A stretch of DNA of 64,000 nt from Escherichia coli. GTDB taxonomy: Bacteria > Pseudomonadota > Gammaproteobacteria > Enterobacterales > Enterobacteriaceae. The stretch is taken from assembly GCF_013122565.1 (NCBI RefSeq), contig NZ_CP053258.1; one strand, given 5' to 3'. The notes beneath the pieces are model-generated. The model saw only the letters and a list, made by a program, of their open reading frames with translations. It was not told the origin of the DNA and made no database searches. The position numbers and the translations under genes are program-made. This document shows positions 10,830-64,000 of the stretch, one piece after another. The first letter of the stretch is position 1, and each line of letters starts with the position of its first letter.

Positions 10830-10834
10830 GGGGG

Positions 10835-11737
<903 letters not shown>

Positions 11738-12607: not shown

Positions 12608-12820
12608 ACGGCCTGAGTTGTAATAATAAAGTTCCAGATGTTATATCGTATCGCGTAATCCGTTACGACGGTTTGATGTTGAGAATTGTTTTACTTTTCA
12701 TTTCAATAGTTGACAACTCCCCATTATGCCACTTTTTCAACCTATTTTCGTCAGATATTGGCTAATTCGACCGTTCACGCCATAATCAGCCTTTTAACCC
12801 GCAAAAAGGTAACGAATACC

Positions 12821-13246
12821 ATGGAGATACGCGTATTTCGCCAGGAAGATTTCGAAGAGGTCATCACCCTTTGGGAACGTTGCGACTTGCTGCGTCCGTG
12901 GAACGATCCGGAAATGGACATCGAGCGTAAGATGAACCATGACGTCAGTTTGTTTTTGGTCGCTGAGGTGAACGGTGAAGTGGTCGGAACGGTGATGGGC
13001 GGTTATGACGGGCATCGCGGGTCTGCTTATTATCTTGGCGTGCATCCAGAGTTTCGTGGGCGTGGGATTGCCAATGCGTTGCTTAACCGGCTGGAGAAAA
13101 AGCTGATTGCTCGCGGCTGCCCGAAAATTCAGATCAACGTGCCGGAAGATAACGACATGGTGCTCGGAATGTATGAACGCCTGGGATATGAACACGCCGA
13201 CGTGCTGAGTCTGGGTAAGCGTTTGATTGAAGATGAAGAGTACTGA
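12821..13246 (+). CDS. ypeA: GNAT-family acetyltransferase YpeA
   Basis: Track ORF 12710-13246 trimmed to ATG at 12821 ([14 protein letters not shown]...), 141 aa. Confidence 0.88.
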
Positions 13247-13682
13247 GTTTCATCCTGTCCATTATGATGCGCACGGTCGCCTGCGTTTACCCTTGCTCTT
13301 CTGGCTTGTGCTATTGCTTCAGGCGCGAACCTGGGTGCTGTTTGTCATTGCCGGTGCGTCGCGCGAGCAGGGTACTGCGCTGCTAAATCTGTTTTATCCC
13401 GATCACGATAATTTCTGGCTGGGGCTGATTCCTGGCATTCCGGCGGTGCTGGCGTTTTTGTTGAGCGGTCGGCGGGCTACGTTTCCTCGCACCTGGCGTG
13501 TACTCTATTTTCTGTTGCTGTTGGCGCAGGTGGTTTTACTTTGCTGGCAACCGTGGCTGTGGCTGAACGGTGAATCCGTTAGCGGTATCGGTCTGGCGCT
13601 GGTAGTGGCGGATATTGTGGCGTTAATCTGGCTGCTGACCAATCGACGTTTACGCGCTTGTTTTAATGAAGAAAAAGAATAA
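13233..13682 (+). CDS. yfeZ: Inner-membrane protein YfeZ
   Basis: Hydrophobic ~149-aa ORF overlapping ypeA 3' end; start at second Met assumed. Confidence 0.8.
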
Positions 13683-13703
13683 CGCAGAGGTGCGCTTTGT
13701 TTA

Positions 13704-13802
13704 TGCCGGATGCGGCGTGAACGCCTTATCCGGCCTACAAAACATCGAAAATTCAATATATTGCAGGAGAAAGTAGGCCTGATAAGCGTAGCGCATCAGG
13801 CA
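13704..13802. repeat. REP/BIME cluster in yfeZ-yfeY intergenic
   Basis: Two REP cores in opposite orientation (tgccggatgcggcgtgaacgccttatccggcctac ... gtaggcctgataagcgtagcgcatcaggc). Confidence 0.8.
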
Positions 13803-13888
13803 ATTTTGTGTTTGTCATCAACCTTTAACGGCACTTTTTGGTGAATTTGAACTCCAAGCAACGTTATTGAATAACCAAAGGAAGTGAC

Positions 13889-14464
13889 ATGAAATCGCTG
13901 CGTTTAATGTTATGCGCTATGCCGTTGATGCTGACCGGCTGTTCCACGATGTCGTCAGTTAACTGGTCTGCCGCTAACCCGTGGAACTGGTTTGGGTCGT
14001 CCACCAAAGTGAGCGAGCAGGGCGTTGGTGAATTAACGGCGTCCACACCACTGCAAGAACAAGCCATTGCCGATGCGCTTGATGGCGATTATCGCCTGCG
14101 CAGCGGAATGAAAACCGCGAACGGCAACGTGGTGCGCTTTTTTGAAGTGATGAAGGGCGACAACGTGGCGATGGTGATTAACGGCGATCAAGGCACGATC
14201 AGTCGCATTGACGTGCTGGATAGCGATATTCCTGCTGACACCGGTGTTAAAATCGGTACACCGTTTAGCGACCTTTACAGCAAAGCATTTGGCAATTGCC
14301 AAAAAGCTGATGGTGATGATAATCGTGCCGTCGAATGTAAAGCCGAAGGCAGTCAACATATTAGCTACCAGTTCAGCGGGGAATGGAGTGGTCCTGAAGG
14401 GTTAATGCCTTCGGACGATACCCTGAAAAACTGGAAAGTCAGTAAAATTATCTGGCGGCGTTAA
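13889..14464 (+). CDS. yfeY: Lipoprotein YfeY
   Basis: 191-aa ORF with lipoprotein signal and lipobox (LMLTGCS). Confidence 0.9.
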   Translation: MKSLRLMLCAMPLMLTGCSTMSSVNWSAANPWNWFGSSTKVSEQGVGELTASTPLQEQAIADALDGDYRLRSGMKTANGNVVRFFEVMKGDNVAMVINGDQGTISRIDVLDSDIPADTGVKIGTPFSDLYSKAFGNCQKADGDDNRAVECKAEGSQHISYQFSGEWSGPEGLMPSDDTLKNWKVSKIIWRR

Positions 14465-14475
14465 TTTGCGTCTGA

Positions 14476-15459
<984 letters not shown>

Positions 15460-15482
15460 GCGTTTCTGATTCGATGATGAAA

Positions 15483-15520
15483 GGCCAGGCAGTAACATTA
15501 CTGACTGGCCTTTTTATTAC
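15483..15520. terminator. Bidirectional hairpin terminator between convergent yfeX and yfeW
   Basis: Long imperfect inverted repeat ggccaggcagtaacattactgactggcc flanked by A/T runs. Confidence 0.55.
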
Positions 15521-16818
15521 TGCTTTAACGCCGCATATACCTGATCAACAACCCAACCATAAGTTGCAATCGGCAACTGACCGCTTTCGAACATATTGGG
15601 ATTTTTTTGTGGATCGGCAACGGGTGAATGTGGCTTGTTGCTTAACATCACAATCGCCATATGATTCACCGGATCGATAACGGTTACCGTCCCGGTCCAA
15701 CCTGTGTGACCGTAGGTTTGCGGGCTTGCCAGCGTGCCAAACGTCGGCGTCATGGTGGCATTACCATTCACGCGCCAGCCGAGGCCAAAAGTGGCATCTT
15801 CCTTAGAGCTGGTGGTGAACATCTTCACCGTTTCCGCACTGAACAGCTGCACATCGCCATAGCCACCGCCGTTCAGCATCGTTTGCATTAACACCGCAAT
15901 ATCGCCGGTATTGGAAAACAAACCTGCGTGCCCGGAAACGCCGCCCATCGAATAAAAGGCTTTTTCATCGTGCACCTGACCCCAGAGAGTGGAGGTGCGG
16001 ATATTCGGGAAGTGGATCACGCCATCGCGGGTATTGCCGTTCAATTCTGTGGCGGCAATTTGTTGCGGTTTAAAGCCTTTCAGTAGCGGATTAAACACCG
16101 TATGCGTCAGACCGAGCGGGCGATAAATCGACTCTTCAACATAGCGGTCAAGCGGCTGACCGGTGACCGACTCGACGATAAATCCAAGCAGCATATAATC
16201 GACATCACTGTAAATATGCTTGCTGCCGGGCTGATACTCCAGCGGCGTGCGCTTGATCATCTCCAGCGTCTGGCCTTTATCCTGGGAATATAACGCGCCC
16301 GCGACCGCTTTATTCGGGTATTGCGGGTCCGCCGGGAAACCGCCGCTGTGATGCAGCAGATCAGAAATCCGCAGGGTGTTTTTGCCTTTAATCGCATCGT
16401 TCGCGCCATCGGCAAATCCCGGAATATATTTCGCAATCAGATCGTCAGGATGCAGCTTGCCTTCGCTCATTAGCTTTTGCAGAGCGAAGTTAGTGGCGTA
16501 CATCTTGGTGTTTGAGGCTAGATCATACAGCGTCCCGGTGGTGGCTTTTACCGGCTGCGCCATCAATACGCTGCCATCGTACTTTTTCGCCGCGCCCCAG
16601 GCTTTGCGATACACAATCTGATTATCTTTAATAATCAGCAGGTTTACGCCGGGATAACCGGCATCAACTTGCTGGCTTATCCAGCGATCCATCTGGTTAA
16701 GCCGTTCGACGTTGAACCCTGCTTTCTCTGGCGAACTTTCTGTCAGAACAGGGTATTTTGCGGCGCTGACGCTACAACTAACAGCCAGCAGAGAAAGATA
16801 GAGCATTGTCCGTTTCAT
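15517..16818 (-). CDS. yfeW: Penicillin-binding protein 4B (class C beta-lactamase fold) YfeW
   Basis: SxxK motif (SNTK) seen; start placed at ATG 16818 (MKRTMLYL..., signal peptide), 4 nt downstream of murP stop; track ORF begins at an upstream TTG. Confidence 0.88.
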   Translation of the reverse strand: MKRTMLYLSLLAVSCSVSAAKYPVLTESSPEKAGFNVERLNQMDRWISQQVDAGYPGVNLLIIKDNQIVYRKAWGAAKKYDGSVLMAQPVKATTGTLYDLASNTKMYATNFALQKLMSEGKLHPDDLIAKYIPGFADGANDAIKGKNTLRISDLLHHSGGFPADPQYPNKAVAGALYSQDKGQTLEMIKRTPLEYQPGSKHIYSDVDYMLLGFIVESVTGQPLDRYVEESIYRPLGLTHTVFNPLLKGFKPQQIAATELNGNTRDGVIHFPNIRTSTLWGQVHDEKAFYSMGGVSGHAGLFSNTGDIAVLMQTMLNGGGYGDVQLFSAETVKMFTTSSKEDATFGLGWRVNGNATMTPTFGTLASPQTYGHTGWTGTVTVIDPVNHMAIVMLSNKPHSPVADPQKNPNMFESGQLPIATYGWVVDQVYAALKQ

Positions 16819-16822
16819 AATA

Positions 16823-18247
<1,425 letters not shown>

Positions 18248-26287: not shown

Positions 26288-26371
26288 GCCTGATGTGCCA
26301 CGCTTATCAGGCCTACAAGGTTTCTGCAATATATTGAATTAGCACGATTTTGTAGGCCGGATAAGGCGTTT
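26288..26371. repeat. REP/BIME cluster downstream of cysM (left portion; interrupted by IS)
   Basis: PU copies gcctgatgtgccacgcttatcaggcctac and tgtaggccggataaggcgttt; the last unit continues after the IS as acgccgcatccggc. Confidence 0.8.
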
Positions 26372-45658: not shown

Positions 45659-45734
45659 TGGTGGGTCGTGCAGGATTCGAACCTGCGACCAATTGATTAA
45701 AAGTCAACTGCTCTACCAACTGAGCTAACGACCC
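45659..45734 (-). tRNA. lysV: tRNA-Lys (anticodon UUU)
   Basis: Reverse complement folds as tRNA: GGGTCGTTAGCTCAGTTGG... anticodon loop CTTTTAA ...CCA. Confidence 0.95.
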
Positions 45735-45738
45735 GAAG

Positions 45739-45814
45739 TGGTGGGTGATGACGGGATCGAACCGCCGACCCCCTCCTTGTAAGGGAGGTGCTCTCCCAGC
45801 TGAGCTAATCACCC
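45739..45814 (-). tRNA. valY: tRNA-Val (anticodon UAC)
   Basis: Reverse complement GGGTGATTAGCTCAGCTGGGAGAGCACCTCCCTTACAAGGAGG...CCA; copy 1 of 3 identical genes. Confidence 0.95.
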
Positions 45815-45860
45815 ACTTCGGTACTTCACATTTTTACAAGAAATTTAGCTGGCGAGAAAG

Positions 45861-45936
45861 TGGTGGGTGATGACGGGATCGAACCGCCGACCCCCTCCTT
45901 GTAAGGGAGGTGCTCTCCCAGCTGAGCTAATCACCC
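45861..45936 (-). tRNA. valX: tRNA-Val (anticodon UAC)
   Basis: Identical copy 2. Confidence 0.95.
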
Positions 45937-45980
45937 ACTTCTCAATTTCTTGCTACACGGCGGAGACTACATAAAGTAGT

Positions 45981-46056
45981 TGGTGGGTGATGACGGGATC
46001 GAACCGCCGACCCCCTCCTTGTAAGGGAGGTGCTCTCCCAGCTGAGCTAATCACCC
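45981..46056 (-). tRNA. valU: tRNA-Val (anticodon UAC)
   Basis: Identical copy 3 (promoter-proximal on minus strand). Confidence 0.95.
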
Positions 46057-48754: not shown

Positions 48755-48830
<76 letters not shown>

Positions 48831-48869
48831 AATTTTGCACCCAGCAAATTTGGTACGTAAACGCATCGT

Positions 48870-48945
<76 letters not shown>

Positions 48946-49152: not shown

Positions 49153-51342
49153 ATGTTTGTGGAGCATAACCTGATAAAAAATATCAAGATATTCACACTA
49201 GCGTTTACGCTCACCGTGGTACTTATTCAGCTATCCCGTTTTATTTCGCCACTTGCTATTATCCATTCCAGTTATATCTTTCTGGCGTGGATGCCACTGT
49301 GCGTAATGCTGTCAATCTTGTTTATCTTTGGCTGGCGCGGTGTCGTTCCCGTTTTATGCGGAATGTTTTGCACCAATCTGTGGAACTTTCATCTCTCTTT
49401 TTTACAGACTGCGGTCATGCTCGGCAGCCAGACGTTTGTCGTGTTGTGTGCCTGCGCAATATTACGCTGGCAGCTAGGGACGCGTTGGCGTTATGGATTG
49501 ACCAGCCGATATGTCTGGCAACGTCTGTTCTGGCTTGGTTTGGTGACGCCGATCGGCATCAAATGCAGCATGTATCTTGTGGGGAGCTTCTTTGATTTCC
49601 CGCTAAAGATTTCCACCTTTTTCGGCGATGCGGATGCCATTTTCACGGTCGTTGATTTGCTAAGCCTTTTCACCGCGGTGCTGATTTACAACATGCTTTT
49701 CTACTATCTCACTCGCATGATTGTAAGTCCCCACTTTGCGCAGATATTGTGGCGCAGGGATATCGCTCCGTCGTTGGGCAAAGAGAAACGCGCATTTACC
49801 TTAAGCTGGCTGGCAGCGTTAAGCGTGCTGCTACTTCTGTTGTGCACACCTTATGAAAACGACTTTATTGCCGGTTACCTGGTACCCGTTTTCTTCATCA
49901 TCTTTACCCTCGGGGTCGGTAAGCTTCGCTATCCGTTTTTAAATCTCACCTGGGCTGTTTCAACGCTTTGCCTGCTGAATTACAACCAGAACTTTTTACA
50001 AGGGGTGGAAACCGAATATTCGCTGGCATTTATTCTCGCGGTGCTGATTTCCTTTAGCGTTTGCCTGCTCTATATGGTGCGCATTTATCATCGCAGTGAA
50101 TGGCTTAATCGACGCTGGCATTTGCAGGCGCTGACCGATCCGTTAACGCTCCTACCCAACTTTCGTGCGTTGGAACAAGCACCGGAGCAAGAGGTGGGCA
50201 AGAGTTTTTGCTGCCTGCGCATTGATAATCTTGAGTTTATGAGTCGTCATTACGGGTTAATGATGCGCGTTCACTGTATCCGCTCAATTTACCGTACGCT
50301 GCTGCCGTTGATGCAGGAAAACGAAAAGTTGTATCAATTGCCGGGCAGTGAACTGCTGTTAGTGCTGAGCGGGCCGGAAACGGAAGGGCGACTCCAGCAT
50401 ATGGTTAACATCCTGAATAGTCGGCAAATTCACTGGAACAATACCGGGCTGGATATGGGCTATGGTGCTGCCTGGGGGCGTTTTGATGGAAATCAGGAAA
50501 CCCTGCAACCCTTGTTGGGGCAGTTAAGCTGGCTGGCGGAGCAATCCTGCGCACATCATCATGTGCTGGCGCTGGATAGCAGAGAGGAGATGGTTTCCGG
50601 GCAGACCACTAAACAAGTGCTATTGCTGAATACCATTCGCGCGGCGTTAGATCAGGGGGATTTGCTGCTCTACGCCCAGCCCATTCGCAACAAAGAGGGT
50701 GAAGGTTATGATGAGATCCTCGCGCGACTGAAATATGACGGCGGCATTATGACCCCGGATAAGTTTCTGCCCCTTATTGCTCAGTTTAACCTTAGCGCGC
50801 GTTTTGATTTGCAAGTGCTGGAATCCCTGTTGAAGTGGCTTGCAACACACCCTTGCGACAAAAAAGGTCCACGCTTTTCAGTCAATTTAATGCCGCTCAC
50901 GCTGCTGCAAAAGAATATTGCCGGGCGGATTATTCGTCTGTTTAAGCGTTATCACATCTCCCCGCAGGCGGTCATTCTTGAGATCACCGAGGAGCAGGCG
51001 TTTTCTAACGCAGAAAGCAGCATGTACAACATCGAGCAGCTGCATAAGTTTGGTTTCCGGATTGCGATTGATGACTTTGGCACCGGCTATGCCAACTACG
51101 AACGGTTAAAGCGTTTGCAGGCTGATATCATCAAAATTGATGGCGTCTTTGTGAAAGATATCGTCACGAACACGCTGGATGCGATGATTGTGAGATCAAT
51201 TACCGATCTGGCGAAAGCGAAGTCATTGAGTGTGGTCGCGGAGTTTGTCGAGACGCAACAGCAGCAGGCGCTATTGCATAAGCTCGGGGTGCAATATCTG
51301 CAAGGGTATTTGATTGGTCGCCCGCAGCCATTAGCTGATTAA
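49153..51342 (+). CDS. pdeA: c-di-GMP phosphodiesterase PdeA (YfeA): MASE1 membrane sensor, degenerate GGDEF, EAL
   Basis: Track ORF 49093-51342 trimmed to ATG 49153 (MFVEHNLIKNIKIF...), 729 aa; EAL-domain motifs (EIL..., DDFGTGYANY) seen. Confidence 0.9.
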   Translation: MFVEHNLIKNIKIFTLAFTLTVVLIQLSRFISPLAIIHSSYIFLAWMPLCVMLSILFIFGWRGVVPVLCGMFCTNLWNFHLSFLQTAVMLGSQTFVVLCACAILRWQLGTRWRYGLTSRYVWQRLFWLGLVTPIGIKCSMYLVGSFFDFPLKISTFFGDADAIFTVVDLLSLFTAVLIYNMLFYYLTRMIVSPHFAQILWRRDIAPSLGKEKRAFTLSWLAALSVLLLLLCTPYENDFIAGYLVPVFFIIFTLGVGKLRYPFLNLTWAVSTLCLLNYNQNFLQGVETEYSLAFILAVLISFSVCLLYMVRIYHRSEWLNRRWHLQALTDPLTLLPNFRALEQAPEQEVGKSFCCLRIDNLEFMSRHYGLMMRVHCIRSIYRTLLPLMQENEKLYQLPGSELLLVLSGPETEGRLQHMVNILNSRQIHWNNTGLDMGYGAAWGRFDGNQETLQPLLGQLSWLAEQSCAHHHVLALDSREEMVSGQTTKQVLLLNTIRAALDQGDLLLYAQPIRNKEGEGYDEILARLKYDGGIMTPDKFLPLIAQFNLSARFDLQVLESLLKWLATHPCDKKGPRFSVNLMPLTLLQKNIAGRIIRLFKRYHISPQAVILEITEEQAFSNAESSMYNIEQLHKFGFRIAIDDFGTGYANYERLKRLQADIIKIDGVFVKDIVTNTLDAMIVRSITDLAKAKSLSVVAEFVETQQQQALLHKLGVQYLQGYLIGRPQPLAD

Positions 51343-51350
51343 CAGGCGTA

Positions 51351-51382
51351 AAAAAGCCGGGGAATTATCCCCGGCTTTTTTA
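51351..51382. terminator. Bidirectional terminator between convergent pdeA and nupC
   Basis: aaaaaagccggggaattatccccggctttttt. Confidence 0.75.
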
Positions 51383-51391
51383 TGTATGGTC

Positions 51392-52594
51392 TTACAGCAC
51401 CAGTGCTGCGATTGACGCCGACAGCACACTCACCAGGGTAGAGCCGTAAACCAGTTTCAGACCGAAGCGAGAAACCACGTTACCTTGCTCTTCATTCAGG
51501 CCTTTAACTGCACCTGCGATAATCCCGATTGATGAGAAGTTAGCGAAGGAAACCAGGAACACAGAGATGATGCCTTCAGCACGCGGAGAGAGCGTGGAAG
51601 CAATTTTCTGCAGATCCATCATCGCAACGAACTCGTTGGAAACCAGTTTGGTCGCCATGATACTGCCCACTTGCAGTGCTTCACTGGAAGGAACACCCAT
51701 CACCCATGCAATCGGATAGAAGATGTAGCCCAGGATGCCCTGGAAGGAGATGCTGTAGCCAAACCAGCCAGTCACGGTGGCAAACAGTGCGTTCAGCGCG
51801 GCGATCAGGGCGATAAAGCCAATCAGCATTGCGGCAACGATAATGGCAACTTTGAAACCTGCCAGAATGTATTCACCCAGCATTTCGAAGAAGCTCTGAC
51901 CTTCGTGCAGGTTGGACATCTGAATGTTTTCTTCACTGGCATCAACACGGTAAGGGTTGATCAGCGACAGCACGATAAAGGTGCTGAACATGTTAAGTAC
52001 CAGCGCCGCAACGACATATTTCGGCTCCAGCATGGTCATGTATGCACCAACGATGGACATAGAAACGGTGGACATCGCCGTTGCTGCCATGGTGTACATA
52101 CGATTGCGGGAGATTTTGCCGAGGATATCTTTATAGGCAATAAAGTTTTCAGACTGACCCAGAATCAGGGAGCTGACGGCGTTAAAGGATTCCAGTTTGC
52201 CCATACCGTTGACTTTGGAGAGCAGGAAACCAATTGCGCGGATAATCACCGGCAACACGCGAATGTGTTGGAGAATACCGATCAGTGCAGAGATAAAGAC
52301 GATTGGGCACAGCACTTTCAGGAAGAAGAATGCCAGGCCTTGATCATTCATGCTACCAAAGACGAAGTTAGTCCCTTCGTTGGCAAATCCGAGCAGTTTT
52401 TCGAACATTTCGGAGAAGCCTTTCACGAAGCCTAAACCAACGTCGGAGTTCAGGAAGAACCACGCCAGTAACACTTCGATAACAAGCAGTTGAATAACAT
52501 AACGGATACGAATTTTTTTGCGGTCGCTGCTTACCAGCAGTGCGAGAATCGCAACAACGGCAAGTGCCAGTACAAAATGAAGGACGCGGTCCAT
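51392..52594 (-). CDS. nupC: Concentrative nucleoside transporter NupC (CNT family)
   Basis: Track ORF trimmed to ATG 52594 ([14 protein letters not shown]...), 400 aa. Confidence 0.93.
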
Positions 52595-52865
52595 ATTTGC
52601 TCCAAATATGAGGCAGGTTAAATTTCCGTGCACATTCTATGTAACATGGTTAAGGAAAACGAGATCTGACACACACTATAATGACGTCCTGTGACAAGCT
52701 TCAAAAATAGTGATCTGCCATACATTTCTGCTATGTTGTGTATGGAAGCTGAAAGTTATGTAAATGTGCTAACATTAAACATAACCATAACATTCGAGTC
52801 ATCAATCTTTTCGTAGTCATAATCCTGGTCTATCAGAGAAATCACCACAACCCATTTAAATGAAT

Positions 52866-52880
52866 TTGATAATCATTCTC
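52866..52880. promoter_or_regulatory. Fur-box-like sequence in mntH promoter
   Basis: TGATAATCATTCTC resembles Fur consensus GATAATGATAATCATTATC. Confidence 0.5.
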
Positions 52881-52895
52881 GTTTGGCATAGCATG

Positions 52896-52917
52896 AAACA
52901 TAGCAAAGGCTATGTTT
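52896..52917. promoter_or_regulatory. MntR operator palindrome in mntH promoter
   Basis: Perfect inverted repeat AAACATAGC-aaag-GCTATGTTT immediately upstream of the mntH RBS. Confidence 0.7.
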
Positions 52918-52920
52918 TAG

Positions 52921-54168
<1,248 letters not shown>

Positions 54169-54195
54169 TTGAATGAGCGTCGCATCTGGCACTAT

Positions 54196-54286
<91 letters not shown>

Positions 54287-54308
54287 TGTGCTCCATTGGC
54301 AAATGTGT

Positions 54309-54635
54309 TTAATGGCGGTGCCCATGTCCGCGGCCTTTTCCGCGATGATCGTCACGATCGCGCCAGCCTTCACGATAGCCACGCTCATACGCTTTACGCT
54401 TATCCCAGCCACGGTGGTAGCCATTATCATGACGCCACCAGCGGTTTTTACGCCATTCATAATTGCGATGCCAGTAGTCACGGTCGCGCCAGTGACCACC
54501 GTCCCAGTAATTACCGTAATGATCGCGATCGCCAATTTGTAATTTGATTGATGGCAGTAGGGTGATTTCACCTGCGTTTGCCGCAAGCGGGGTAAATGCC
54601 ATCAGGGCGGCCGCCAGAAACAGTGACCTGAACAT
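54309..54635 (-). CDS. ypeC: Secreted DUF2502 protein YpeC (His/Arg/Trp/Asp-rich)
   Basis: 108-aa ORF with signal peptide ([21 protein letters not shown]) and repeats such as [19 protein letters not shown]...GRGHGHRH. Confidence 0.85.
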
Positions 54636-54749
54636 TGTTATTCTCCTTCACGATCGAAGCCGTCAGCGGCCTGTTAACGCAATATTACGGGGAGGTAAAG
54701 CCCCGTATCATCGCCATAACTCTTAAATCATAAAGGAGAGCATTTTTTG

Positions 54750-56006
54750 CTAAACGTTATCGTGGGGTGGCTGTTGCTTCGGACGATTGACCATCATCAT
54801 CGGCTTACCTGCTAATAACAGCCATGCCGGAAGCATGACGATACAGAGCAGCGGTAGCAAGGTGGTATTGGGTACAACGACTGCCGCCATAAAAAGACTT
54901 AACCAGCCATCACGTGTTACCACCAGCACGATGCCGAGAATAGCGCAGGAAACGGTTATTGCCGCTGGAACGGCGGGTACGTGCTCATGCAGCATCAACC
55001 CTAATGCCACGCCGACAAACACTGCCGGGAAGATTCGTCCACCGCGAAAGCCACTGGCGGCAGCAACGACCAGGGCGGTAAGTTTAATTACCGCCAGCAA
55101 AAAGTAATCGCTGGTGCTGAAAGCCTGATTTGCCACCATCTGCTGCATCTCATCCAGTCCTTTAAACAGCGAAACCGGCCCACCAATAACCCCCAGAATA
55201 CCGAGAATAAATCCGCCAATACCCAGCACGAGCACCGGATTTTTCATTTGATGCATCATCGCGTGCAATCGTGGTAAGCACCATACGGCGACCATCCCTG
55301 CTGCGATGGCAATCGCCGCGACAATTGCACCGCTGAGAATATCGGTCATTTCCATCTGTCCGTAATGCGCAATGGGCAGTGAAAAATGAGGATGGAAAAA
55401 TAATCCGGTAGTAAGTGCACCAGCTGCTGCCGCCATTAACGGCGCAAAGAGACGATCCCATAGCGGAACTTCACTACTGCCATTTAAGGTTTGCGAAAAT
55501 ATCAACGCCGCCGCAACAGGTGTGCCAAACAGTGCGCCAATGGTTCCGGCAGAGGCTAAAATAGTCCACTCCATTCGGTTGACGCGCGGTAACAGACGAG
55601 CGCCAATGGCGACGGCAAGGGCGATATTGACGGTCATGATCGGATGTTCCGGCCCCAGGCTGACGCCGCCAGCAAGACCGAGAATTAATGCTACGATAAG
55701 TCCAGGTAGCGCAGAGGGCGGAACCGGTGCGCCGATCAGCGGTTCACAGGCGGGGTCTGGTCCGGCATGACCCTGGCTGAAACGGATAACCAACCCCACC
55801 GCAATACCCGTTAGCGTTAATACACCGATGATCCAGAGGGGTGAATCCTGGGCTATCCCCAGAGTTCCCGGCAGTCGTTGCCAGAGCAAATTCTGTAATA
55901 CCGAGGCGATTTTCATCACCACAATCAGAATAAGACTGGACGCAATCCCAATTGCCACGGCGGGGAGCGATAATAACAACATGGTTCTGGCTCGCGGATG
56001 GAGCAT
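54750..56006 (-). CDS. yfeO: ClC-family ion channel-like membrane protein YfeO
   Basis: 418-aa polytopic ORF; synteny glk-yfeO-ypeC-mntH. Confidence 0.9.
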
Positions 56007-56209
56007 GTTCTATTCCTTATGCGGGGTCAGATACTTAGTTTGCCCAGCTTGCAAAAAGGCATCGCTGCAATTGGTGCTGAAACGATAAAGTAATTGTGTG
56101 ACCCAGATCGATATTTACAGGGAGCCTGCCTTTCCGGCGTTGTTGTTATGCCCCCAGGTATTTACAGTGTGAGAAAGAATTATTTTGACTTTAGCGGAGC
56201 AGTTGAAGA

Positions 56210-57175
56210 ATGACAAAGTATGCATTAGTCGGTGATGTGGGCGGCACCAACGCACGTCTTGCTCTGTGTGATATTGCCAGTGGTGAAATCTCGCAGGCTA
56301 AGACCTATTCAGGGCTTGATTACCCCAGCCTCGAAGCGGTCATTCGCGTTTATCTTGAAGAACATAAGGTCGAGGTGAAAGACGGCTGTATTGCCATCGC
56401 TTGCCCGATTACCGGAGACTGGGTGGCAATGACCAACCATACCTGGGCGTTCTCAATTGCCGAAATGAAAAAGAATCTCGGTTTTAGCCATCTGGAAATT
56501 ATTAACGATTTTACCGCTGTATCGATGGCGATCCCGATGCTGAAAAAAGAGCATCTGATTCAGTTTGGTGGCGCAGAACCGGTAGAAGGTAAGCCTATTG
56601 CGGTTTACGGTGCCGGAACGGGGCTTGGGGTTGCGCATCTGGTCCATGTCGATAAGCGTTGGGTAAGCTTGCCAGGCGAAGGCGGTCACGTTGATTTTGC
56701 GCCGAATAGTGAAGAAGAGGCCATTATCCTCGAAATATTGCGTGCGGAAATTGGTCATGTTTCGGCGGAACGTGTGCTTTCTGGCCCAGGACTGGTGAAT
56801 TTGTATCGCGCAATTGTTAAAGCCGACAACCGCCTGCCAGAAAATCTCAAGCCAAAAGATATTACCGAACGCGCGCTGGCTGACAGCTGCACCGATTGCC
56901 GCCGTGCGTTGTCGCTGTTTTGCGTCATTATGGGCCGTTTTGGCGGCAATCTGGCGCTCAATCTCGGGACATTTGGCGGCGTGTTTATTGCGGGCGGTAT
57001 CGTGCCGCGCTTCCTTGAGTTCTTCAAAGCCTCTGGTTTCCGTGCCGCATTTGAAGATAAAGGGCGCTTTAAAGAATATGTCCATGATATTCCGGTGTAT
57101 CTCATCGTCCATGACAATCCGGGTCTTCTCGGTTCCGGTGCACATTTACGCCAGACCTTAGGTCACATTCTGTAA
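56210..57175 (+). CDS. glk: Glucokinase Glk
   Basis: 321-aa ROK-like/glucokinase ORF ([20 protein letters not shown]...). Confidence 0.97.
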
Positions 57176-57393
57176 ATCCTTCCTGTTATATCGGGAGATA
57201 ACTCTCCCGATAATCTTTTAAATCATACAGTTAATTCAATTTTTCTTTGTGTCCCCTCACAAGGCCGACCTGCGTCACACTTCCGTACAGCGGGATTAAT
57301 TCTCCAGTAAATGCATTATTTGTCTGGTAACGGCGATTTGTTTTGCACGTTCATAATTTCACTCGTCAACTATCACTGAACGAGGAATTAACG

Positions 57394-57720
57394 ATGAGTA
57401 AGAAACTGATTGCCTTATGTGCCTGCCCGATGGGCCTGGCTCACACTTTTATGGCCGCTCAGGCGCTGGAAGAAGCAGCGGTAGAAGCCGGTTATGAAGT
57501 GAAAATTGAAACCCAGGGCGCGGACGGTATCCAGAATCGCCTGACGGCGCAGGATATCGCCGAAGCGACAATCATCATCCACTCCGTGGCAGTTACCCCG
57601 GAAGATAACGAGCGTTTCGAATCACGCGACGTTTATGAAATCACTTTGCAGGACGCAATTAAAAACGCTGCGGGCATCATCAAAGAAATCGAAGAGATGA
57701 TTGCCTCTGAACAACAGTAA
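57394..57720 (+). CDS. fryB: PTS fructose-like EIIB component FryB
   Basis: Trimmed to ATG 57394 (MSKKLIALCACPMGLAHTFMAA...), 108 aa; EIIB-Fru-type Cys motif. Confidence 0.88.
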   Translation: MSKKLIALCACPMGLAHTFMAAQALEEAAVEAGYEVKIETQGADGIQNRLTAQDIAEATIIIHSVAVTPEDNERFESRDVYEITLQDAIKNAAGIIKEIEEMIASEQQ

Positions 57721-57741
57721 TATTCGACAGGGATAATTGTT

Positions 57742-58989
57742 ATGGCCATTAAAAAACGCAGTGCAACCGTTGTGCCTGGCGCATCCGGTGCGGCAGCGGC
57801 AGTTAAGAATCCGCAGGCCTCTAAAAGCAGCTTCTGGGGTGAACTCCCGCAGCATGTGATGTCAGGGATTTCACGCATGGTGCCGACCTTAATTATGGGC
57901 GGTGTGATCCTCGCTTTCAGCCAGTTGATTGCTTATAGCTGGCTTAAAATTCCTGCTGATATCGGCATCATGGATGCTCTTAATAGCGGAAAATTCTCCG
58001 GTTTCGACCTCTCCTTACTGAAATTTGCCTGGCTGTCGCAGTCCTTCGGCGGCGTGTTGTTTGGTTTTGCCATTCCGATGTTTGCTGCTTTTGTGGCGAA
58101 CTCTATCGGTGGCAAATTGGCGTTCCCGGCTGGTTTTATCGGCGGGTTGATGTCTACCCAGCCGACGCAACTGCTGAACTTCGATCCCAGCACTATGCAA
58201 TGGGCGACCTCTTCGCCGGTGCCGTCCACCTTCATTGGTGCCCTGATTATTTCTATCGTTGCTGGTTACCTTGTGAAGTGGATGAACCAGAAAATCCAGT
58301 TACCGGATTTCCTGTTAGCGTTCAAAACCACATTTTTGCTACCGATTCTTTCCGCCATTTTTGTCATGCTGGCGATGTACTACGTCATTACCCCATTTGG
58401 TGGCTGGATCAACGGCGGTATCCGTACCGTGCTGACTGCCGCAGGTGAGAAGGGCGCGCTAATGTATGCGATGGGGATCGCCGCGGCGACAGCAATCGAC
58501 CTTGGTGGACCGATCAACAAAGCCGCAGGTTTCGTTGCCTTCAGCTTTACCACTGACCACGTATTACCGGTCACCGCACGTTCTATCGCTATCGTTATTC
58601 CGCCGATTGGTCTGGGGCTGGCGACCATTATTGACCGTCGTTTAACCGGCAAACGCCTGTTCAATGCTCAGCTTTATCCGCAGGGTAAGACCGCGATGTT
58701 CCTGGCGTTTATGGGGATCAGTGAGGGTGCGATTCCGTTTGCGCTGGAAAGCCCCATCACCGCCATTCCGTCGTATATGGTCGGCGCGATTGTCGGCTCA
58801 ACCGCCGCTGTCTGGCTGGGCGCAGTGCAATGGTTCCCGGAGTCCGCTATCTGGGCATGGCCGCTGGTCACTAACCTTGGCGTCTATATGGCGGGGATCG
58901 CGCTGGGGGCAATCATTACAGCGCTGATGGTGGTGTTCCTGCGTCTGATGATGTTCCGCAAAGGCAAATTGTTAATCGATAGCCTGTAA
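57742..58989 (+). CDS. fryC: PTS fructose-like EIIC component FryC
   Basis: 415-aa polytopic ORF. Confidence 0.92.
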
Positions 58990-59003
58990 GAAGGAAAATC
59001 CAG

Positions 59004-60089
59004 ATGACATTACTCGCTTCGCTGCGCGACTGGCTTAAGGCGCAACAACTGGATGCGGTGCTTCTCTCATCACGGCAGAACAAACAGCCGCATCTGGGGA
59101 TCTCCACCGGATCAGGCTATGTGCTGATTAGCCGTGAAAGTGCGCACATTCTGGTGGATTCGCGATATTACGCGGATGTGGAAGCCCGCACGCAAGGCTA
59201 CCAGCTGCATTTGCTTGACGCGACGCACACGCTTGCAACCATCGTCAATCAAATCATTGCCGATGAACAGATACAGACGCTCGGTTTTGAAGGTCAGCAG
59301 GTGAGTTGGGAAACCGCGCACCGCTGGCAGTCTGAACTCAATGCGAAACTGGTTAGCGCCACGCCGGATGTGCTGCGGCAAATCAAAACGCCAGAGGAGG
59401 TGGAGAAAATCCGCCTTGCCTGTGGGATTGCCGATCGCGGTGCAGAGCATATTCGCCGCTTTATTCAGGCGGGGATGAGCGAGCGCGAGATAGCCGCTGA
59501 ACTGGAGTGGTTTATGCGCCAGCAGGGCGCAGAAAAAGCCTCTTTTGACACCATTGTCGCCAGCGGCTGGCGTGGGGCGCTACCGCACGGCAAAGCCAGC
59601 GACAAGATTGTTGCAGCGGGCGAGTTTGTCACTCTCGATTTCGGTGCGCTCTATCAGGGCTACTGCTCTGATATGACGCGCACCTTGCTGGTGAATGGCG
59701 AAGGGGTGAGCGCCGAATCTCATCCGCTGTTTAACGTCTATCAGATTGTTTTGCAGGCACAGCTTGCGGCAATCTCTGCAATTCGCCCCGGCGTGCGCTG
59801 CCAGCAGGTTGACGACGCCGCGCGCCGGGTGATTACCGAGGCAGGTTTTAGCGACTATTTTGGTCATAACACCGGTCATGCTATCGGCATTGAAGTCCAT
59901 GAAGATCCGCGTTTTTCACCGCGGGATACCACGACGCTACAGCCAGGCATGTTACTGACCGTGGAGCCGGGGATTTATTTGCCAGGGCAAGGGGGCGTGC
60001 GCATCGAAGATGTTGTGCTGGTCACCCCGCAAGGCGCAGAAGTGCTCTACGCCATGCCGAAAACAGTGTTGCTCACGGGAGAGGCATAA
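59004..60089 (+). CDS. ypdF: Xaa-Pro aminopeptidase-like M24 peptidase YpdF
   Basis: 361-aa ORF with pita-bread fold motifs (HNTGHAIG..., metal-binding D/H/E pattern). Confidence 0.9.
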
Positions 60090-61126
60090 TGGATTTATCG
60101 CTATTAAAAGCGTTGAGCGAGGCAGATGCGATCGCCTCCTCGGAACAGGAAGTGCGGCAGATCCTGCTGGAAGAAGCGGATCGCCTGCAAAAAGAAGTGC
60201 GATTTGATGGTCTGGGATCGGTGCTGATCCGCCTCAATGAATCGACAGGTCCGAAGGTGATGATCTGTGCGCATATGGACGAAGTGGGATTTATGGTGCG
60301 CAGCATCTCCCGCGAAGGGGCGATTGATGTGCTGCCGGTTGGCAACGTACGCATGGCTGCCCGCCAGCTGCAGCCGGTGCGCATCACCACCCGTGAAGAG
60401 TGCAAAATTCCAGGCCTGCTTGACGGCGACCGGCAGGGGAATGACGTCAGCGCCATGCGCGTGGATATTGGCGCGCGCTCGTATGACGAAGTGATGCAGG
60501 CGGGAATTCGTCCAGGCGATCGCGTCACGTTTGATACTACTTTTCAGGTTCTCCCTCACCAGCGGGTGATGGGGAAAGCCTTTGATGACCGCCTCGGTTG
60601 CTACCTGCTGGTGACGTTACTGCGCGAACTACACAGCGCTGAACTGCCTGCGGAAGTGTGGCTGGTGGCCAGTTCCAGCGAAGAGGTGGGGTTACGCGGC
60701 GGGCAAACTGCCACCCGCGCGGTGTCGCCGGACGTCGCCATTGTGCTTGATACCGCCTGCTGGGCGAAAAACTTTGATTATGGCGCGGCTAACCATCGCC
60801 AGATTGGTAACGGGCCGATGCTGGTGTTAAGCGATAAATCGCTGATTGCGCCGCCAAAACTTACCGCGTGGATTGAAACCGTGGCGGCAGAAATTGGCGT
60901 GCCGTTGCAGGCGGATATGTTCAGCAACGGCGGCACGGACGGCGGGGCGGTGCACTTAACCGGCACCGGCGTGCCCACGGTGGTGATGGGGCCAGCAACC
61001 CGCCACGGACATTGCGCCGCATCGATTGCCGACTGCCGTGACATTTTGCAGATGCAGCAGCTTTTATCTGCCCTTATTCAACGTCTTACGCGTGAGACGG
61101 TTGTTCAACTGACGGATTTCAGATGA
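60089..61126 (+). CDS. ypdE: M42-family aminopeptidase YpdE
   Basis: 345-aa ORF; 1-nt overlap with ypdF. Confidence 0.9.
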
Positions 61127-61150
61127 TCTCCTGATTAACCCGGAGCGGTT

Positions 61151-63646
61151 ATGTTAACGATTCAATTTCTCTGTCCTTTGCCTAACGGTCTTCATGCCCG
61201 TCCGGCGTGGGAACTTAAAGAACAGTGCAGCCAGTGGCAAAGCGAAATCACCTTCATCAACCATCGCCAGAACGCAAAGGCAGATGCGAAAAGCTCGCTG
61301 GCGCTGATTGGCACCGGCACCTTATTTAATGACAGTTGCAGCCTGAACATTAGCGGCAGCGATGAAGAGCAGGCGCGGCGCGTGCTGGAAGAGTACATCC
61401 AGGTGCGCTTTATCGACAGCGACAGCATCCAGCCAACGCAGGCAGAACTGACGGCGCATCCGCTGCCGCGTTCATTAAGCCGCCTGAACCCGGATTTACT
61501 GTACGGCAACGTGCTGGCAAGCGGCGTCGGCGTGGGGACGCTGACCCTGTTACAGAGTGACAGCCTCGACAGTTATCGGGCGATCCCCGCCAGTGCGCAA
61601 GATTCCACCCGGCTGGAGCACAGCCTGGCAACGCTTGCCGAGCAACTGAACCAGCAATTGCGTGAGCGTGACGGCGAAAGCAAAACTATCCTCAGCGCCC
61701 ATTTGTCGCTGATTCAGGATGATGAATTTGCAGGCAATATCCGTCGCCTGATGACAGAACAGCATCAGGGGCTGGGGGCGGCGATCATCAGCAATATGGA
61801 GCAGGTTTGTGACAAGCTTTCTGCCTCTGCCAGCGATTATCTGCGCGAGCGGGTTAGCGACATTCGCGATATCAGCGAACAGTTGCTGCATATCACCTGG
61901 CCGGAACTGAAGCCGCGCAACAATCTGGTGCTTGAAAAACCGACCATTCTGGTGGCTGAAGATTTAACCCCAAGCCAGTTTTTGAGCCTGGATTTAAAAA
62001 ATCTTGCGGGCATGATTCTGGAGAAAACCGGGCGCACCTCGCATACACTGATTCTGGCCCGCGCCTCGGCGATCCCGGTACTGAGCGGCCTGCCGCTGGA
62101 TGCGATTGCCCGTTATGCCGGGCAACCGGCGGTGCTTGACGCCCAGTGCGGCGTGCTGGCGATTAACCCGAATGACGCGGTGAGCGGTTATTATCAGGTC
62201 GCGCAGACGCTGGCGGATAAACGCCAAAAACAACAGGCGCAGGCTGCCGCGCAGCTGGCTTATTCCCGTGATAACAAGCGTATTGATATCGCGGCGAATA
62301 TCGGCACCGCTCTGGAAGCGCCAGGCGCGTTTGCCAACGGCGCGGAAGGCGTTGGACTGTTCCGTACTGAAATGCTGTATATGGATCGCGACAGCGCGCC
62401 GGACGAGCAGGAGCAATTTGAAGCCTACCAGCAGGTGCTACTGGCGGCGGGCGACAAGCCGATTATCTTCCGCACAATGGACATCGGCGGCGATAAAAGC
62501 ATTCCTTACCTCAACATTCCCCAGGAAGAGAACCCGTTCCTCGGCTATCGCGCGGTACGTATTTACCCGGAATTTGCTGGCCTGTTCCGCACTCAACTGC
62601 GGGCTATTTTGCGTGCTGCCAGTTTCGGCAACGCCCAGTTGATGATCCCTATGGTTCACAGCCTCGATCAGATCTTATGGGTGAAGGGCGAGATCCAAAA
62701 AGCGATCGTTGAGCTTAAGCGCGATGGCCTGCGTCATGCAGAGACGATTACGCTGGGTATCATGGTGGAAGTGCCGTCGGTGTGCTACATCATCGACCAC
62801 TTCTGCGATGAGGTCGATTTCTTCAGTATCGGCTCCAACGATATGACCCAGTATCTGTATGCGGTCGATCGTAATAACCCGCGCGTATCGCCGCTGTATA
62901 ACCCGATTACGCCATCGTTCCTGCGCATGTTACAGCAGATAGTTACCACTGCGCATCAGCGGGGCAAATGGGTAGGCATTTGCGGTGAACTGGGCGGTGA
63001 AAGCCGTTATCTGCCGCTACTGCTTGGGCTGGGCCTGGATGAGCTGAGTATGAGTAGCCCACGCATTCCGGCGGTGAAAAGCCAGCTTCGTCAACTGGAT
63101 AGCGAGGCGTGTCGGGAACTGGCGCGTCAGGCATGTGAATGCCGCAGCGCGCAGGAAATTGAAGCGTTACTCACCGCCTTTACGCCGGAAGAAGACATTC
63201 GCCCATTACTGGCGCTGGAGAATATCTTTGTTGATCAGTCCTTTAGCAATAAAGAGCAGGCGATTCAGTTCCTGTGCGGTAACCTCGGCGTTAACGGGCG
63301 CACTGAACATCCGTTCGAGCTGGAAGAAGATGTCTGGCAGCGGGAAGAGATAGTCACCACTGGCGTTGGTTTTGGCGTGGCGATCCCGCACACCAAATCG
63401 CAGTGGATCCGTCATTCCAGTATCAGCATTGCCCGGCTGGCGAAACCGGTTGACTGGCAGTCAGAAATGGGCGAAGTCGAACTGGTGATCATGCTGACGC
63501 TGGGTGCTAACGAAGGTATGAATCATGTGAAAGTCTTCTCGCAGCTGGCGCGTAAACTGGTGAATAAAAACTTCCGCCAGTCGTTGTTTGCCGCGCAAGA
63601 TGCACAAAGTATCCTGACGCTGCTGGAAACAGAATTAACCTTCTGA
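61151..63646 (+). CDS. fryA: PTS multiphosphoryl transfer protein FryA (HPr-like / Enzyme I-like / EIIA-Fru-like fusion)
   Basis: 831-aa ORF; HPr-like N-terminus (LCPLPNGLHARPA), EI-like centre, EIIA C-terminus. Confidence 0.92.
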   Translation: MLTIQFLCPLPNGLHARPAWELKEQCSQWQSEITFINHRQNAKADAKSSLALIGTGTLFNDSCSLNISGSDEEQARRVLEEYIQVRFIDSDSIQPTQAELTAHPLPRSLSRLNPDLLYGNVLASGVGVGTLTLLQSDSLDSYRAIPASAQDSTRLEHSLATLAEQLNQQLRERDGESKTILSAHLSLIQDDEFAGNIRRLMTEQHQGLGAAIISNMEQVCDKLSASASDYLRERVSDIRDISEQLLHITWPELKPRNNLVLEKPTILVAEDLTPSQFLSLDLKNLAGMILEKTGRTSHTLILARASAIPVLSGLPLDAIARYAGQPAVLDAQCGVLAINPNDAVSGYYQVAQTLADKRQKQQAQAAAQLAYSRDNKRIDIAANIGTALEAPGAFANGAEGVGLFRTEMLYMDRDSAPDEQEQFEAYQQVLLAAGDKPIIFRTMDIGGDKSIPYLNIPQEENPFLGYRAVRIYPEFAGLFRTQLRAILRAASFGNAQLMIPMVHSLDQILWVKGEIQKAIVELKRDGLRHAETITLGIMVEVPSVCYIIDHFCDEVDFFSIGSNDMTQYLYAVDRNNPRVSPLYNPITPSFLRMLQQIVTTAHQRGKWVGICGELGGESRYLPLLLGLGLDELSMSSPRIPAVKSQLRQLDSEACRELARQACECRSAQEIEALLTAFTPEEDIRPLLALENIFVDQSFSNKEQAIQFLCGNLGVNGRTEHPFELEEDVWQREEIVTTGVGFGVAIPHTKSQWIRHSSISIARLAKPVDWQSEMGEVELVIMLTLGANEGMNHVKVFSQLARKLVNKNFRQSLFAAQDAQSILTLLETELTF

Positions 63647-63648
63647 CG

Positions 63649-64000
63649 TTAGCCCTGAAAACGGGCGCTGTACTCTCCCGGCGTCAGACCAAACTGACGC
63701 CGGAAAACGCGACAAAAATAGTCGCTATCCGGAAAACCGCAACGCTGTGCCACTTCATGAATTGACAGATGATATTTCTGCAAAATCATCCTCGCCTTCG
63801 CCATTCGCACCCAACGCACATACTCGATAAAACGCATCGTTCCATGCTGAGCAAACAGTTTTGACAGATGATTGGGCGTGATATTAAAAAACTGCGCCAC
63901 GCTCTCGCGGGTGAGCGGCTGGGCATAATTATCCTGAACCCAGTTACAAATGCTGTGATAGAGAAAATCGCCGCGCGGCTGCGAATTGCCCGGCGGCATA
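63649..64000 (-). CDS. ypdC: AraC-family regulator YpdC (3' portion; gene start lies beyond window end)
   Basis: Open frame to the window edge with C-terminal AraC-type HTH (…HSICNWVQDNYAQPLTRESVAQFFNITPNHLSKLF…). Confidence 0.8.
   Translation of the reverse strand, partial: MPPGNSQPRGDFLYHSICNWVQDNYAQPLTRESVAQFFNITPNHLSKLFAQHGTMRFIEYVRWVRMAKARMILQKYHLSIHEVAQRCGFPDSDYFCRVFRRQFGLTPGEYSARFQG

Follow-up and report, generated by a model that had tools for sequence, protein, structure and literature searches.

The DNA analyzed here, a 64,000-nucleotide window of an Escherichia coli contig (NZ_CP053258.1), contains the fry operon, which pairs a phosphotransferase system (PTS) of the fructose (Fru) family with two metallopeptidases. 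Five genes lie on the plus strand in the order fryB-fryC-ypdF-ypdE-fryA. The first two encode the Enzyme IIB (EIIB) component FryB (57394–57720; 108 aa) and the Enzyme IIC (EIIC) membrane permease FryC (57742–58989; 415 aa). They are followed by ypdF (59004–60089; 361 aa), which encodes an M24B Xaa-Pro-type aminopeptidase, ypdE (60089–61126; 345 aa), which encodes an M42 aminopeptidase, and fryA (61151–63646; 831 aa), which encodes a multiphosphoryl transfer protein with HPr-like, Enzyme I (EI), and Enzyme IIA (EIIA) domains. The open reading frames (ORFs) are separated by 21, 14, −1, and 24 nucleotides (nt), exactly the tight packing described in the original prediction, and the gene identities and domain contents given there are borne out by RefSeq annotation and NCBIfam models. 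The annotation of the best-matching E. coli genome lists the identical five genes in the same order and at the same relative positions. The operon as such is already known, being the ortholog of the annotated E. coli K-12 fry operon (b2387–b2383) with ypdC (b2382). Genes, order, and spacing are the same, the neighbors glk (upstream) and ypdC-ypdB-ypdA (downstream) are shared, and only sequence divergence sets the two apart.

The five genes would be transcribed as one operon from a weak, activator-dependent promoter upstream of fryB. A Shine-Dalgarno-like purine run precedes every start codon, and the fryB ATG lies 17 codons into an ORF that begins with TTG (57343–57720). The stop of ypdF and the start of ypdE overlap as TAATG, with one base in common, which is the usual signature of translational coupling and predicts it here. 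On the 5′ side, a terminator-like hairpin (57189–57212, plus strand; a 10-pair stem with 5 G-C pairs and a T-rich tail) starts 14 nt past the glk stop and sets the limit of the fry unit. On the 3′ side, the fryA TGA (ending at 63646) lies 2 nt from the stop codon (63649–63651, minus strand) of the AraC-family gene ypdC, whose 3′ part (63649–64000) is convergent with fryA and is cut by the window end. A consensus scan found no terminator-like hairpin between these two stops, so the convergent transcripts must overlap. Across 56900–64000 the scan returned 5 promoter-like and 8 terminator-like hits, where shuffled sequence gave an expectation of 4.9 and 8.0. Scanned in full against Rfam, the window showed neither a riboswitch nor a leader close to the operon. 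The junctions of 14, −1, and 24 nt, together with the synteny across phyla described below, contradict a scenario in which the peptidases are functionally unrelated to the PTS and have independent promoters.

Families were assigned with NCBIfam models by comparing bit scores with the model cut-offs. FryB matches TIGR00829 (92.2 bits; cut-off 76.85), and FryC only just clears TIGR01427 (157.6; cut-off 157.55), with PF02378 recorded on its homologs. In FryA, the EI domain (TIGR01417, 505.8 bits; cut-off 341.7) carries the motif GRTSH298, and the EIIA(Fru) domain at residues 687–812 (TIGR00848, 142.2 bits; cut-off 103.5) carries AIPH747. The N-terminal HPr-like domain scores under its cut-off (TIGR01003, 40.1 bits; cut-off 47.9), with the motif GLH15ARP present. 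The fry proteins between them have the EIIB, EIIC, and EIIA characters of the Fru family (TC 4.A.2). YpdF and YpdE match their equivalog models, NF007310 (815.5 bits; cut-off 393) and NF007421 (680.2 bits; cut-off 412), and contain the M24B domain with its pita-bread fold and the M42 catalytic domain, respectively; PF01321 (creatinase-like N-terminal) and PF00557 are recorded on YpdF orthologs. YpdF reportedly has Xaa-Pro aminopeptidase and limited Met aminopeptidase activity, and YpdE is said to be of broad specificity. Structures have been solved for YpdF (PDB 5cnx, "Aminopeptidase YpdF") and for the Shigella ortholog of YpdE (PDB 1ylo). YpdE has been cited as a characterized M42 aminopeptidase, one of three E. 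coli M42 proteins, and its dodecameric state was mentioned as unpublished data (PMC3511314).

The catalytic residues are intact throughout. The active-site Cys11 of FryB is invariant in 73 of 73 homologs, as are the five dinuclear-metal ligands of YpdF, D212, D223, H292, E321, and E335 (56 of 56), and the residues of the YpdE co-catalytic metal site, H62, D166, E198, E199, D221, and H308 (40 of 40). Judged by its domains, motifs, and active-site Cys11, the FryA/FryB/FryC transporter appears complete and catalytically competent. With an HPr-like domain, EI, and EIIA of its own, FryA could pass phosphate from phosphoenolpyruvate (PEP) to Cys11 of FryB without the general PTS proteins.

Purifying selection acts on the whole operon. 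The region is matched in 5,424 of 5,426 complete E. coli genomes, with at least 80% of it covered in 5,415. The ratio of nonsynonymous to synonymous substitution rates (dN/dS) is 0.00–0.23 for all five genes in comparisons with E. coli, E. whittamii, Salmonella arizonae, and Enterobacter. Low dN/dS and invariant catalytic residues argue that the operon is maintained and functional, and not a decaying remnant. The best nucleotide identity of the fry region (57000–64000) to any of the complete E. coli genomes is 97.6%; elsewhere in the window it is 97.3% (10000–17000) and 99.0% (49500–56500). We rejected a divergent fry allele, as the best identities in other stretches of the window are 97.3–99.0%. 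Escherichia sp. E1V33 and E. whittamii share 94% identity with the fry region, and the window seems to come from an Escherichia lineage without a close complete E. coli genome.

The sequence upstream of fryB points to candidate regulators. We aligned 230 nt upstream of fryB from 34 enterobacterial loci and found a rigid set of conserved elements embedded in sequence that could not otherwise be aligned. A CRP-like site, GCCGA-N6-TCACA (57264–57279, plus strand), has a perfect right half and a conserved GA in its left half. GA-N6-TCACA recurs in 32 of the 34 loci and ends 22 nt before the first of two direct repeats in 31 of these, and 23 nt before it in one. Repeat 1, TCCAGTAAA (57303–57311, plus strand), a putative distal YpdC half-site, is conserved at fixed spacing in 31 of the 34. 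Repeat 2, TCTGGTAAC (57323–57331, plus strand), starts 20 bp after repeat 1 and abuts the −35 position. It is followed after 20–21 nt in the aligned loci by the −10 hexamer, CATAAT at 57352–57357 (plus strand) in the window and CATAAT or CATACT at the same place in 31 loci. The transcription start is predicted near 57364. Of the 34 loci, 31 have the complete arrangement of CRP half-site, both repeats, and −10 hexamer. No recognizable −35 was found in the alignment, and this poor −35 is why the consensus scan missed the CATAAT promoter.

In araBAD-type promoters, a pair of direct repeats separated by two helical turns abuts a weak −35, and a CRP site lies farther upstream. The fry operon shares with araBAD the adjacent AraC-family gene, the two direct repeats at a poor −35, and the upstream CRP-like site; unlike at araBAD, ypdC is convergent rather than divergent, and the YpdC operator is putative. 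In other enterobacteria the five fry genes and the convergent AraC gene are flanked differently, without glk and without ypdAB. ypdC lies with the fry genes in 27 enterobacterial loci; ypdA and ypdB adjoin them in only about 10–11. Along with the conserved repeats, this supports YpdC as the activator of the operon. The co-inheritance in differing contexts and the AraC-type direct-repeat promoter also speak for the earlier suggestion that ypdC is the likely regulator. We infer that YpdC, acting with cyclic AMP-bound CRP, probably activates the fryB promoter through putative binding to the repeats. fryB was identified as a CRP target by genomic SELEX (PMC3105977), and YpdC has been listed among uncharacterized AraC-family factors (PMC8464067, PMC4797297).

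The evidence on the cargo comes from relatives of the operon in other phyla. We searched 1.8 billion representative proteins with FryC and found its clade to be narrow, with 54 representative clusters at E ≤ 1e-30. A scan with a FryC-clade profile at one genome per species gave 80 loci, which were tallied by tblastn and ORF clustering. Directly after the EIIC gene, an M24 peptidase gene with an M42 or M20 peptidase gene occurs in 63 of the 80 loci (a count that includes two cut right after fryC) and a GH38 MngB-like mannosidase gene in the other 17. Every locus that reaches past EIIC has either the peptidase set or GH38.

The enterobacterial type, fryB-fryC-M24-M42-fryA with a convergent AraC gene in 27, accounts for 32 loci of Enterobacteriaceae and relatives, a few of them cut by contig ends. 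A Firmicute M42 type (14 loci) has the order PRD regulator-EIIA-EIIB-EIIC-M24-M42-PatB and is found in Lachnospiraceae, Ruminococcaceae, Breznakia (Erysipelotrichia), and one Thermoanaerobacterales genome. A clostridial M20 type (10 loci; M20-PRD regulator-EIIA-EIIB-EIIC-M24-PatB, the M20 being of the PepV/Sapep type) occurs in Clostridiaceae, Clostridioides difficile, Pelosinus, Lucifera, and relatives. The Rahnella type (MalI-like regulator-M20-EIIB-EIIC-M24) is represented by 7 loci, from six Rahnella genomes and one related Enterobacterales bacterium (L014–L015, L018–L021, L024). Its EIIC groups with clostridial and not with enterobacterial sequences, which suggests horizontal transfer of this variant. 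In the GH38 type (17 loci; EIIA-EIIB-EIIC-GH38, then a PRD regulator in most) the hosts are Leptotrichia, Sebaldella, Streptococcus suis, Hungatella, and others.

The PTS-peptidase pairing predates the enterobacteria by a wide margin. The PTS-M24-M42 block is kept in Lachnospiraceae, Ruminococcaceae, Erysipelotrichia, and Thermoanaerobacterales at 40–63% amino-acid identity, with 57–63% for FryC, 44–48% for YpdF, and 40–49% for YpdE in the Firmicute M42 type. Among the hits of the protein search, the nearest member of the FryC clade outside the enterobacteria is a fused EIIABC, 54% identical to FryC, which is followed by M24, an M20 dipeptidase, and a PatB-type lyase. Such a MalY/PatB-type C-S lyase, a pyridoxal phosphate (PLP)-dependent enzyme, is present in most Firmicute and Negativicute peptidase-type loci. 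It scores 345 bits against the PatB family cut-off of 340, and among proteins of solved structure E. coli MalY is the most similar (330 bits). The clostridial M20 protein is a PepV/Sapep-type dipeptidase (329 bits; cut-off 208). The M20 protein of locus L006 has no sequence homology to YpdE (E = 0.5), so the M42/M20 swap is a replacement by an analogous enzyme, not divergence. The other genes flanking the Firmicute loci, some of them recurrent or large, were rejected as pathway parts since none recurs with the module. These unrelated neighbors include sensor kinases, MutS/MutL, an RHS protein, a chemoreceptor, an ABC sugar transporter with a ribokinase-like kinase, prolyl-tRNA synthetase, glutamate racemase, and LldR with a lactate permease. 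A peptidoglycan-fragment pathway was likewise rejected, as the loci contain no MurQ- or NagA-type genes.

A neighbor-joining tree of EIIC domains places the enterobacterial sequences as the sister clade of those from Firmicute M24+M42+PatB loci, and on it GH38-linked and peptidase-linked transporters interleave at least twice. This interleaving suggests that one sugar moiety is carried with different aglycones. The GH38 gene scores 616 bits against the model for MngB (mannosylglycerate hydrolase), under the equivalog cut-off of 1138, which marks it by score as an MngB-like relative and not an MngB ortholog. In the MngA/MngB system, a Fru-family PTS imports 2-O-α-mannosyl-D-glycerate and the GH38 enzyme splits the 6-phospho product. 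The fry operon would share this logic of import followed by hydrolysis, and close FryC relatives (51–62% identity) precede the MngB-like GH38. FryC itself is no MngA ortholog (102.3 bits to NF007293; cut-off 763), and the window differs from MngA/MngB in having two metallopeptidases at the MngB position and its own HPr-EI-EIIA protein. A GH38 gene beside the permease is absent from the window and from all enterobacterial loci and is present in 17 loci of the same clade. In the simplest reading, the permease would recognize one sugar, probably α-mannosyl, on different small acidic aglycones. The aglycone of the peptidase-type loci would then be an amino acid or short peptide, with the downstream enzymes handling it.

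A class I mannose-6-phosphate isomerase gene adjoins five of the peptidase-type loci, in three arrangements or lineages. In C. difficile and a related Clostridium, the isomerase and M20 genes are divergent; in Geosporobacter and two Ruminococcaceae, the isomerase gene directly follows the lyase gene. For C. difficile 630, the PTS genes CD2486–88 and the Xaa-Pro peptidase gene CD2485 were found to be co-induced through CcpA, and pmi is CD2491 (PMC3510511). These gene numbers fit the locus order found in our scan.

Our preferred reading, to which we give a probability of about 0.5, is that an autonomous PTS under YpdC/CRP control takes up an amino acid or peptide conjugated to a sugar (probably a mannosyl residue), and that YpdF and YpdE trim this conjugate inside the cell. 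Phosphate would pass from PEP through FryA to Cys11 of FryB, and from there to the molecule that FryC binds. This cargo is most likely not a free hexose; a small conjugate is probable, with a sugar (probably an α-mannosyl-type residue) linked to one amino acid or a short peptide. Once the conjugate is inside and its sugar phosphorylated, the peptide would be trimmed in the cytoplasm by YpdF, with its Xaa-Pro specificity, and by YpdE, with its broad one. A Pro-specific and a general aminopeptidase could together shorten a peptide to its modified residue, and a PLP β-lyase could free a sugar phosphate from Ser or Cys. In most Firmicute and Negativicute versions such a lyase, in some with a mannose-6-phosphate isomerase, would complete the pathway by cleaving the sugar phosphate off the final residue. 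The search for a substrate, so far open to any sugar, is thereby narrowed to amino acids or peptides conjugated to a sugar, probably mannose, because the peptidases (in Firmicutes also the C-S lyase and mannose-6-phosphate isomerase) are locked to one transporter clade and alternate with a phospho-mannosidase. A glycosylated or otherwise modified peptide, or a sugar-amino-acid conjugate, had been proposed before; comparative genomics now backs such a cargo, which is still a candidate. The accompanying statement that the substrate is not established agrees with the literature we found, in which it was explicitly called unknown in 2017 (PMC5364489).

Several points weigh against this reading. 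The enterobacterial module encodes neither a PatB-type lyase nor a glycosidase and thus no enzyme that could free the sugar from the final residue. A gene for mannose-6-phosphate isomerase adjoins only 5 of about 24 Firmicute and Negativicute peptidase-type loci and none of the enterobacterial ones. We know of no precedent for a Fru-family EIIC that carries a glyco-amino acid or glycopeptide. YpdF and YpdE were reportedly assayed on ordinary peptides and showed ordinary aminopeptidase activity. The literature searched contains no experiment that links FryABC to any substrate. In C. difficile, the homologous PTS was labeled "fructose-like" by the authors and is induced by glucose (PMC3510511), and YpdC gave no peaks in ChIP-exo (chromatin immunoprecipitation with exonuclease treatment) in the conditions used (PMC8464067).

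One alternative is that the transporter serves a common free sugar, for instance fructose or mannose, and that the peptidases are general enzymes, merely co-expressed, that never touch the cargo. YpdF and YpdE do resemble typical members of their families, YpdE has been called a previously characterized M42 aminopeptidase (PMC3511314), and the C. difficile homologs are induced by glucose along with other proline-releasing peptidases, which the authors linked to Stickland metabolism (PMC3510511). We nevertheless regard this alternative as unlikely, given that the same two or three hydrolase families accompany a single narrow EIIC clade in different phyla, share their position behind it in alternation with a phospho-mannoside hydrolase, and are joined by a C-S lyase in most Firmicute and Negativicute versions. 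General peptide turnover in E. coli is already covered by PepP, PepQ, PepA, PepB, and PepN. A more specific and quite unlikely proposal is an undescribed PTS pathway for sugar-bearing amino acids or short peptides, with O-(α-mannosyl)-Ser/Thr peptides from yeast, bacterial, or host glycoproteins as the most plausible cargo. Here, the permease would phosphorylate the mannose, a Pro-specific M24 and a general M42 or M20 enzyme would strip the flanking residues, and in most Firmicute and Negativicute versions β-elimination from Ser or Cys by the lyase would yield mannose-6-phosphate, pyruvate, and ammonia. Peptidases and lyase would take the place of the GH38 mannosidase of the sister loci, and in enterobacteria the last step would fall to enzymes encoded elsewhere (MalY, MetC, or MngB).

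The cargo could also be a sugar-containing compatible solute or non-peptide amide, such as mannosylglyceramide or an aminoacyl-sugar, with YpdF and YpdE acting as amidohydrolases. The M24 fold does include ectoine hydrolase, creatinase, and dimethylsulfoniopropionate (DMSP) lyase, M42 includes a hydrolase tied to the N-acetylglutaminylglutamine amide (NAGGN) osmoprotectant system (the family hits are weak in both cases), and the closest relatives of the transporter stand beside mannosylglycerate-hydrolase-like GH38 genes. We consider the idea doubtful and its chances slim: YpdF scores 815 bits against the peptidase model and 37–71 against ectoine hydrolase and DddP models, the replacement of Firmicute M42 by a PepV/Sapep-type dipeptidase (329 bits) points to a real peptide bond, and the last step would need a glycosidase, of GH38 or another family, that the operon does not encode. 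An amino acid or peptide modified by glycation (an Amadori or Heyns product), for example a fructosyl-peptide, would suit a Fru-family transporter, and PTS uptake of fructoselysine and glucoselysine is known from Salmonella and Enterococcus, there through a mannose-family PTS (gfr operon). Yet FrlB/GfrE-type SIS-domain deglycases, fructosamine kinases, and amadoriases are missing from the recurrent neighbors in all 80 loci, and the sugar-side enzymes that do recur are the GH38 mannosidase and mannose-6-phosphate isomerase. Glycated cargo is thus very unlikely, and an Amadori-compound pathway in particular was rejected, as no locus contains a deglycase, kinase, or oxidase. Finally, fry in Escherichia might be a cryptic remnant, or FryA mainly a regulatory phosphorelay, so that the pairing has no present metabolic meaning. 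Laboratory expression is low and YpdC showed no binding (PMC8464067), many E. coli PTS operons, frv and sgc among them, lack an assigned substrate, and sporadic truncations occur (ypdE in L075, fryA in L079). Against these stand five intact genes with invariant catalytic residues and dN/dS of 0.00–0.23 out to Salmonella and Enterobacter, a promoter architecture kept across genera, and a ypdE mutant that is outcompeted in the mouse bladder (PMC8767336), which together make a remnant extremely improbable.

The pairing of a PTS with peptidases had been called unusual, a description that does not hold: all three E. coli K-12 M42 genes (ypdE, frvX, and sgcX) sit inside PTS operons (L089 2108–6824; L090 1107–6652). 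This regularity seems never to have been explained. In the frvABXR and sgcXBCQAER operons, too, an M42 protein is encoded with a PTS permease that has no assigned substrate, and FrvR has similarity (72 bits) to the PRD regulators of the Firmicute Fry-type loci. The two operons differ from fry in having distant transporters (88 bits to the FrvB model; a galactitol-type transporter in sgc), no M24 peptidase, and no multiphosphoryl transfer protein. The malX-malY operon and C. difficile CD3027–CD3030 join a PTS to a PLP β-lyase, as in the Firmicute Fry-type loci (PMC6143707). They contain no peptidases, MalX is a glucose-family permease, and the window itself has no lyase gene. In Staphylococcus hominis, PepA (an M20 dipeptidase) and PatB act in turn on Cys-Gly-3-methyl-3-sulfanylhexan-1-ol (Cys-Gly-3M3SH), and the clostridial loci combine the same families, although the clostridial M20 protein is only a weak match to the S. 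hominis PepA model (217 bits, well under the cut-off of 1025). Uptake of Cys-Gly-3M3SH in S. hominis is by a peptide transporter, not a PTS, and no sugar is involved.

The literature searched in full text through 2026 gives no substrate, inducer, or YpdC target for the fry system, which has been among the E. coli PTS operons with no assigned substrate since the genome was sequenced. The operon was listed as one unit, mildly induced, in a study of envelope stress (PMC2731931). An in-frame fryA deletion regrew better on lysogeny broth (LB) plates after prolonged LB culture (PMC5364489), and a ypdE deletion in uropathogenic strain UTI89 was outcompeted in the mouse bladder with a competitive index of 0.30 (PMC8767336), so ypdE adds to uropathogenic fitness at that site. 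These phenotypes hint at use in peptide-rich, host-derived, or yeast-extract media. As far as we searched, the published record does not describe how the PTS-M24-M42/M20-PatB block is conserved across phyla, how it alternates with GH38 and is linked to mannose-6-phosphate isomerase, or the conserved YpdC-type promoter. If the conjugate reading is right, glyco-amino acids or glycopeptides would join the list of PTS substrates. A role would also be suggested for the M42 "FrvX-like" proteins and MalY-like lyases of PTS operons in E. coli, C. difficile, and gut Firmicutes.

Some individual records deserve mention. C. difficile has two separate PTS operons with a MalY/PatB-type lyase, the Fry-type locus (L022) and CD3027–CD3030, and malY of the latter is reported to be essential and the most induced gene in biofilm (PMC6143707). 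ypdE looks truncated in Escherichia sp. MOD1-EC7003 (L075 12255–12758). In Citrobacter amalonaticus S646 (L079 13657–14604), the EI part of fryA is interrupted and ypdC was not detected. Some E. coli assemblies contain fused ORFs, either FryC-YpdF of 657–688 aa (PF02378, PF01321, PF00557) or FryC-M42 of 653 aa (proteins P0081, P0082, P0111, and P0085), which probably reflect small deletions or frameshifts across the 14-nt gap. A record labeled Chryseobacterium sp. 18061 (L077, CACSKA010000002.1) carries a complete Enterobacteriaceae-type fry locus that clusters with those of Pluralibacter and Enterobacteriaceae; contamination or mislabeling of this Bacteroidota record is likely. The RefSeq pipeline names one fryA ortholog "ptsP" (L001 10152–12647, NZ_CP049204.1), a possible source of confusion in automated comparisons. 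The actual ptsP is a different gene, for the Enzyme I of the nitrogen PTS. Elsewhere in the window lie a Lys-Val-Val-Val tRNA cluster (45659–46056, minus strand), a pair of tRNA-Ala(GGC) genes (48755–48945, plus strand), and a match to the ES036/CssrF small RNA family (26309–26351, minus strand) that scores 40.9, just above the gathering score of 37.6.

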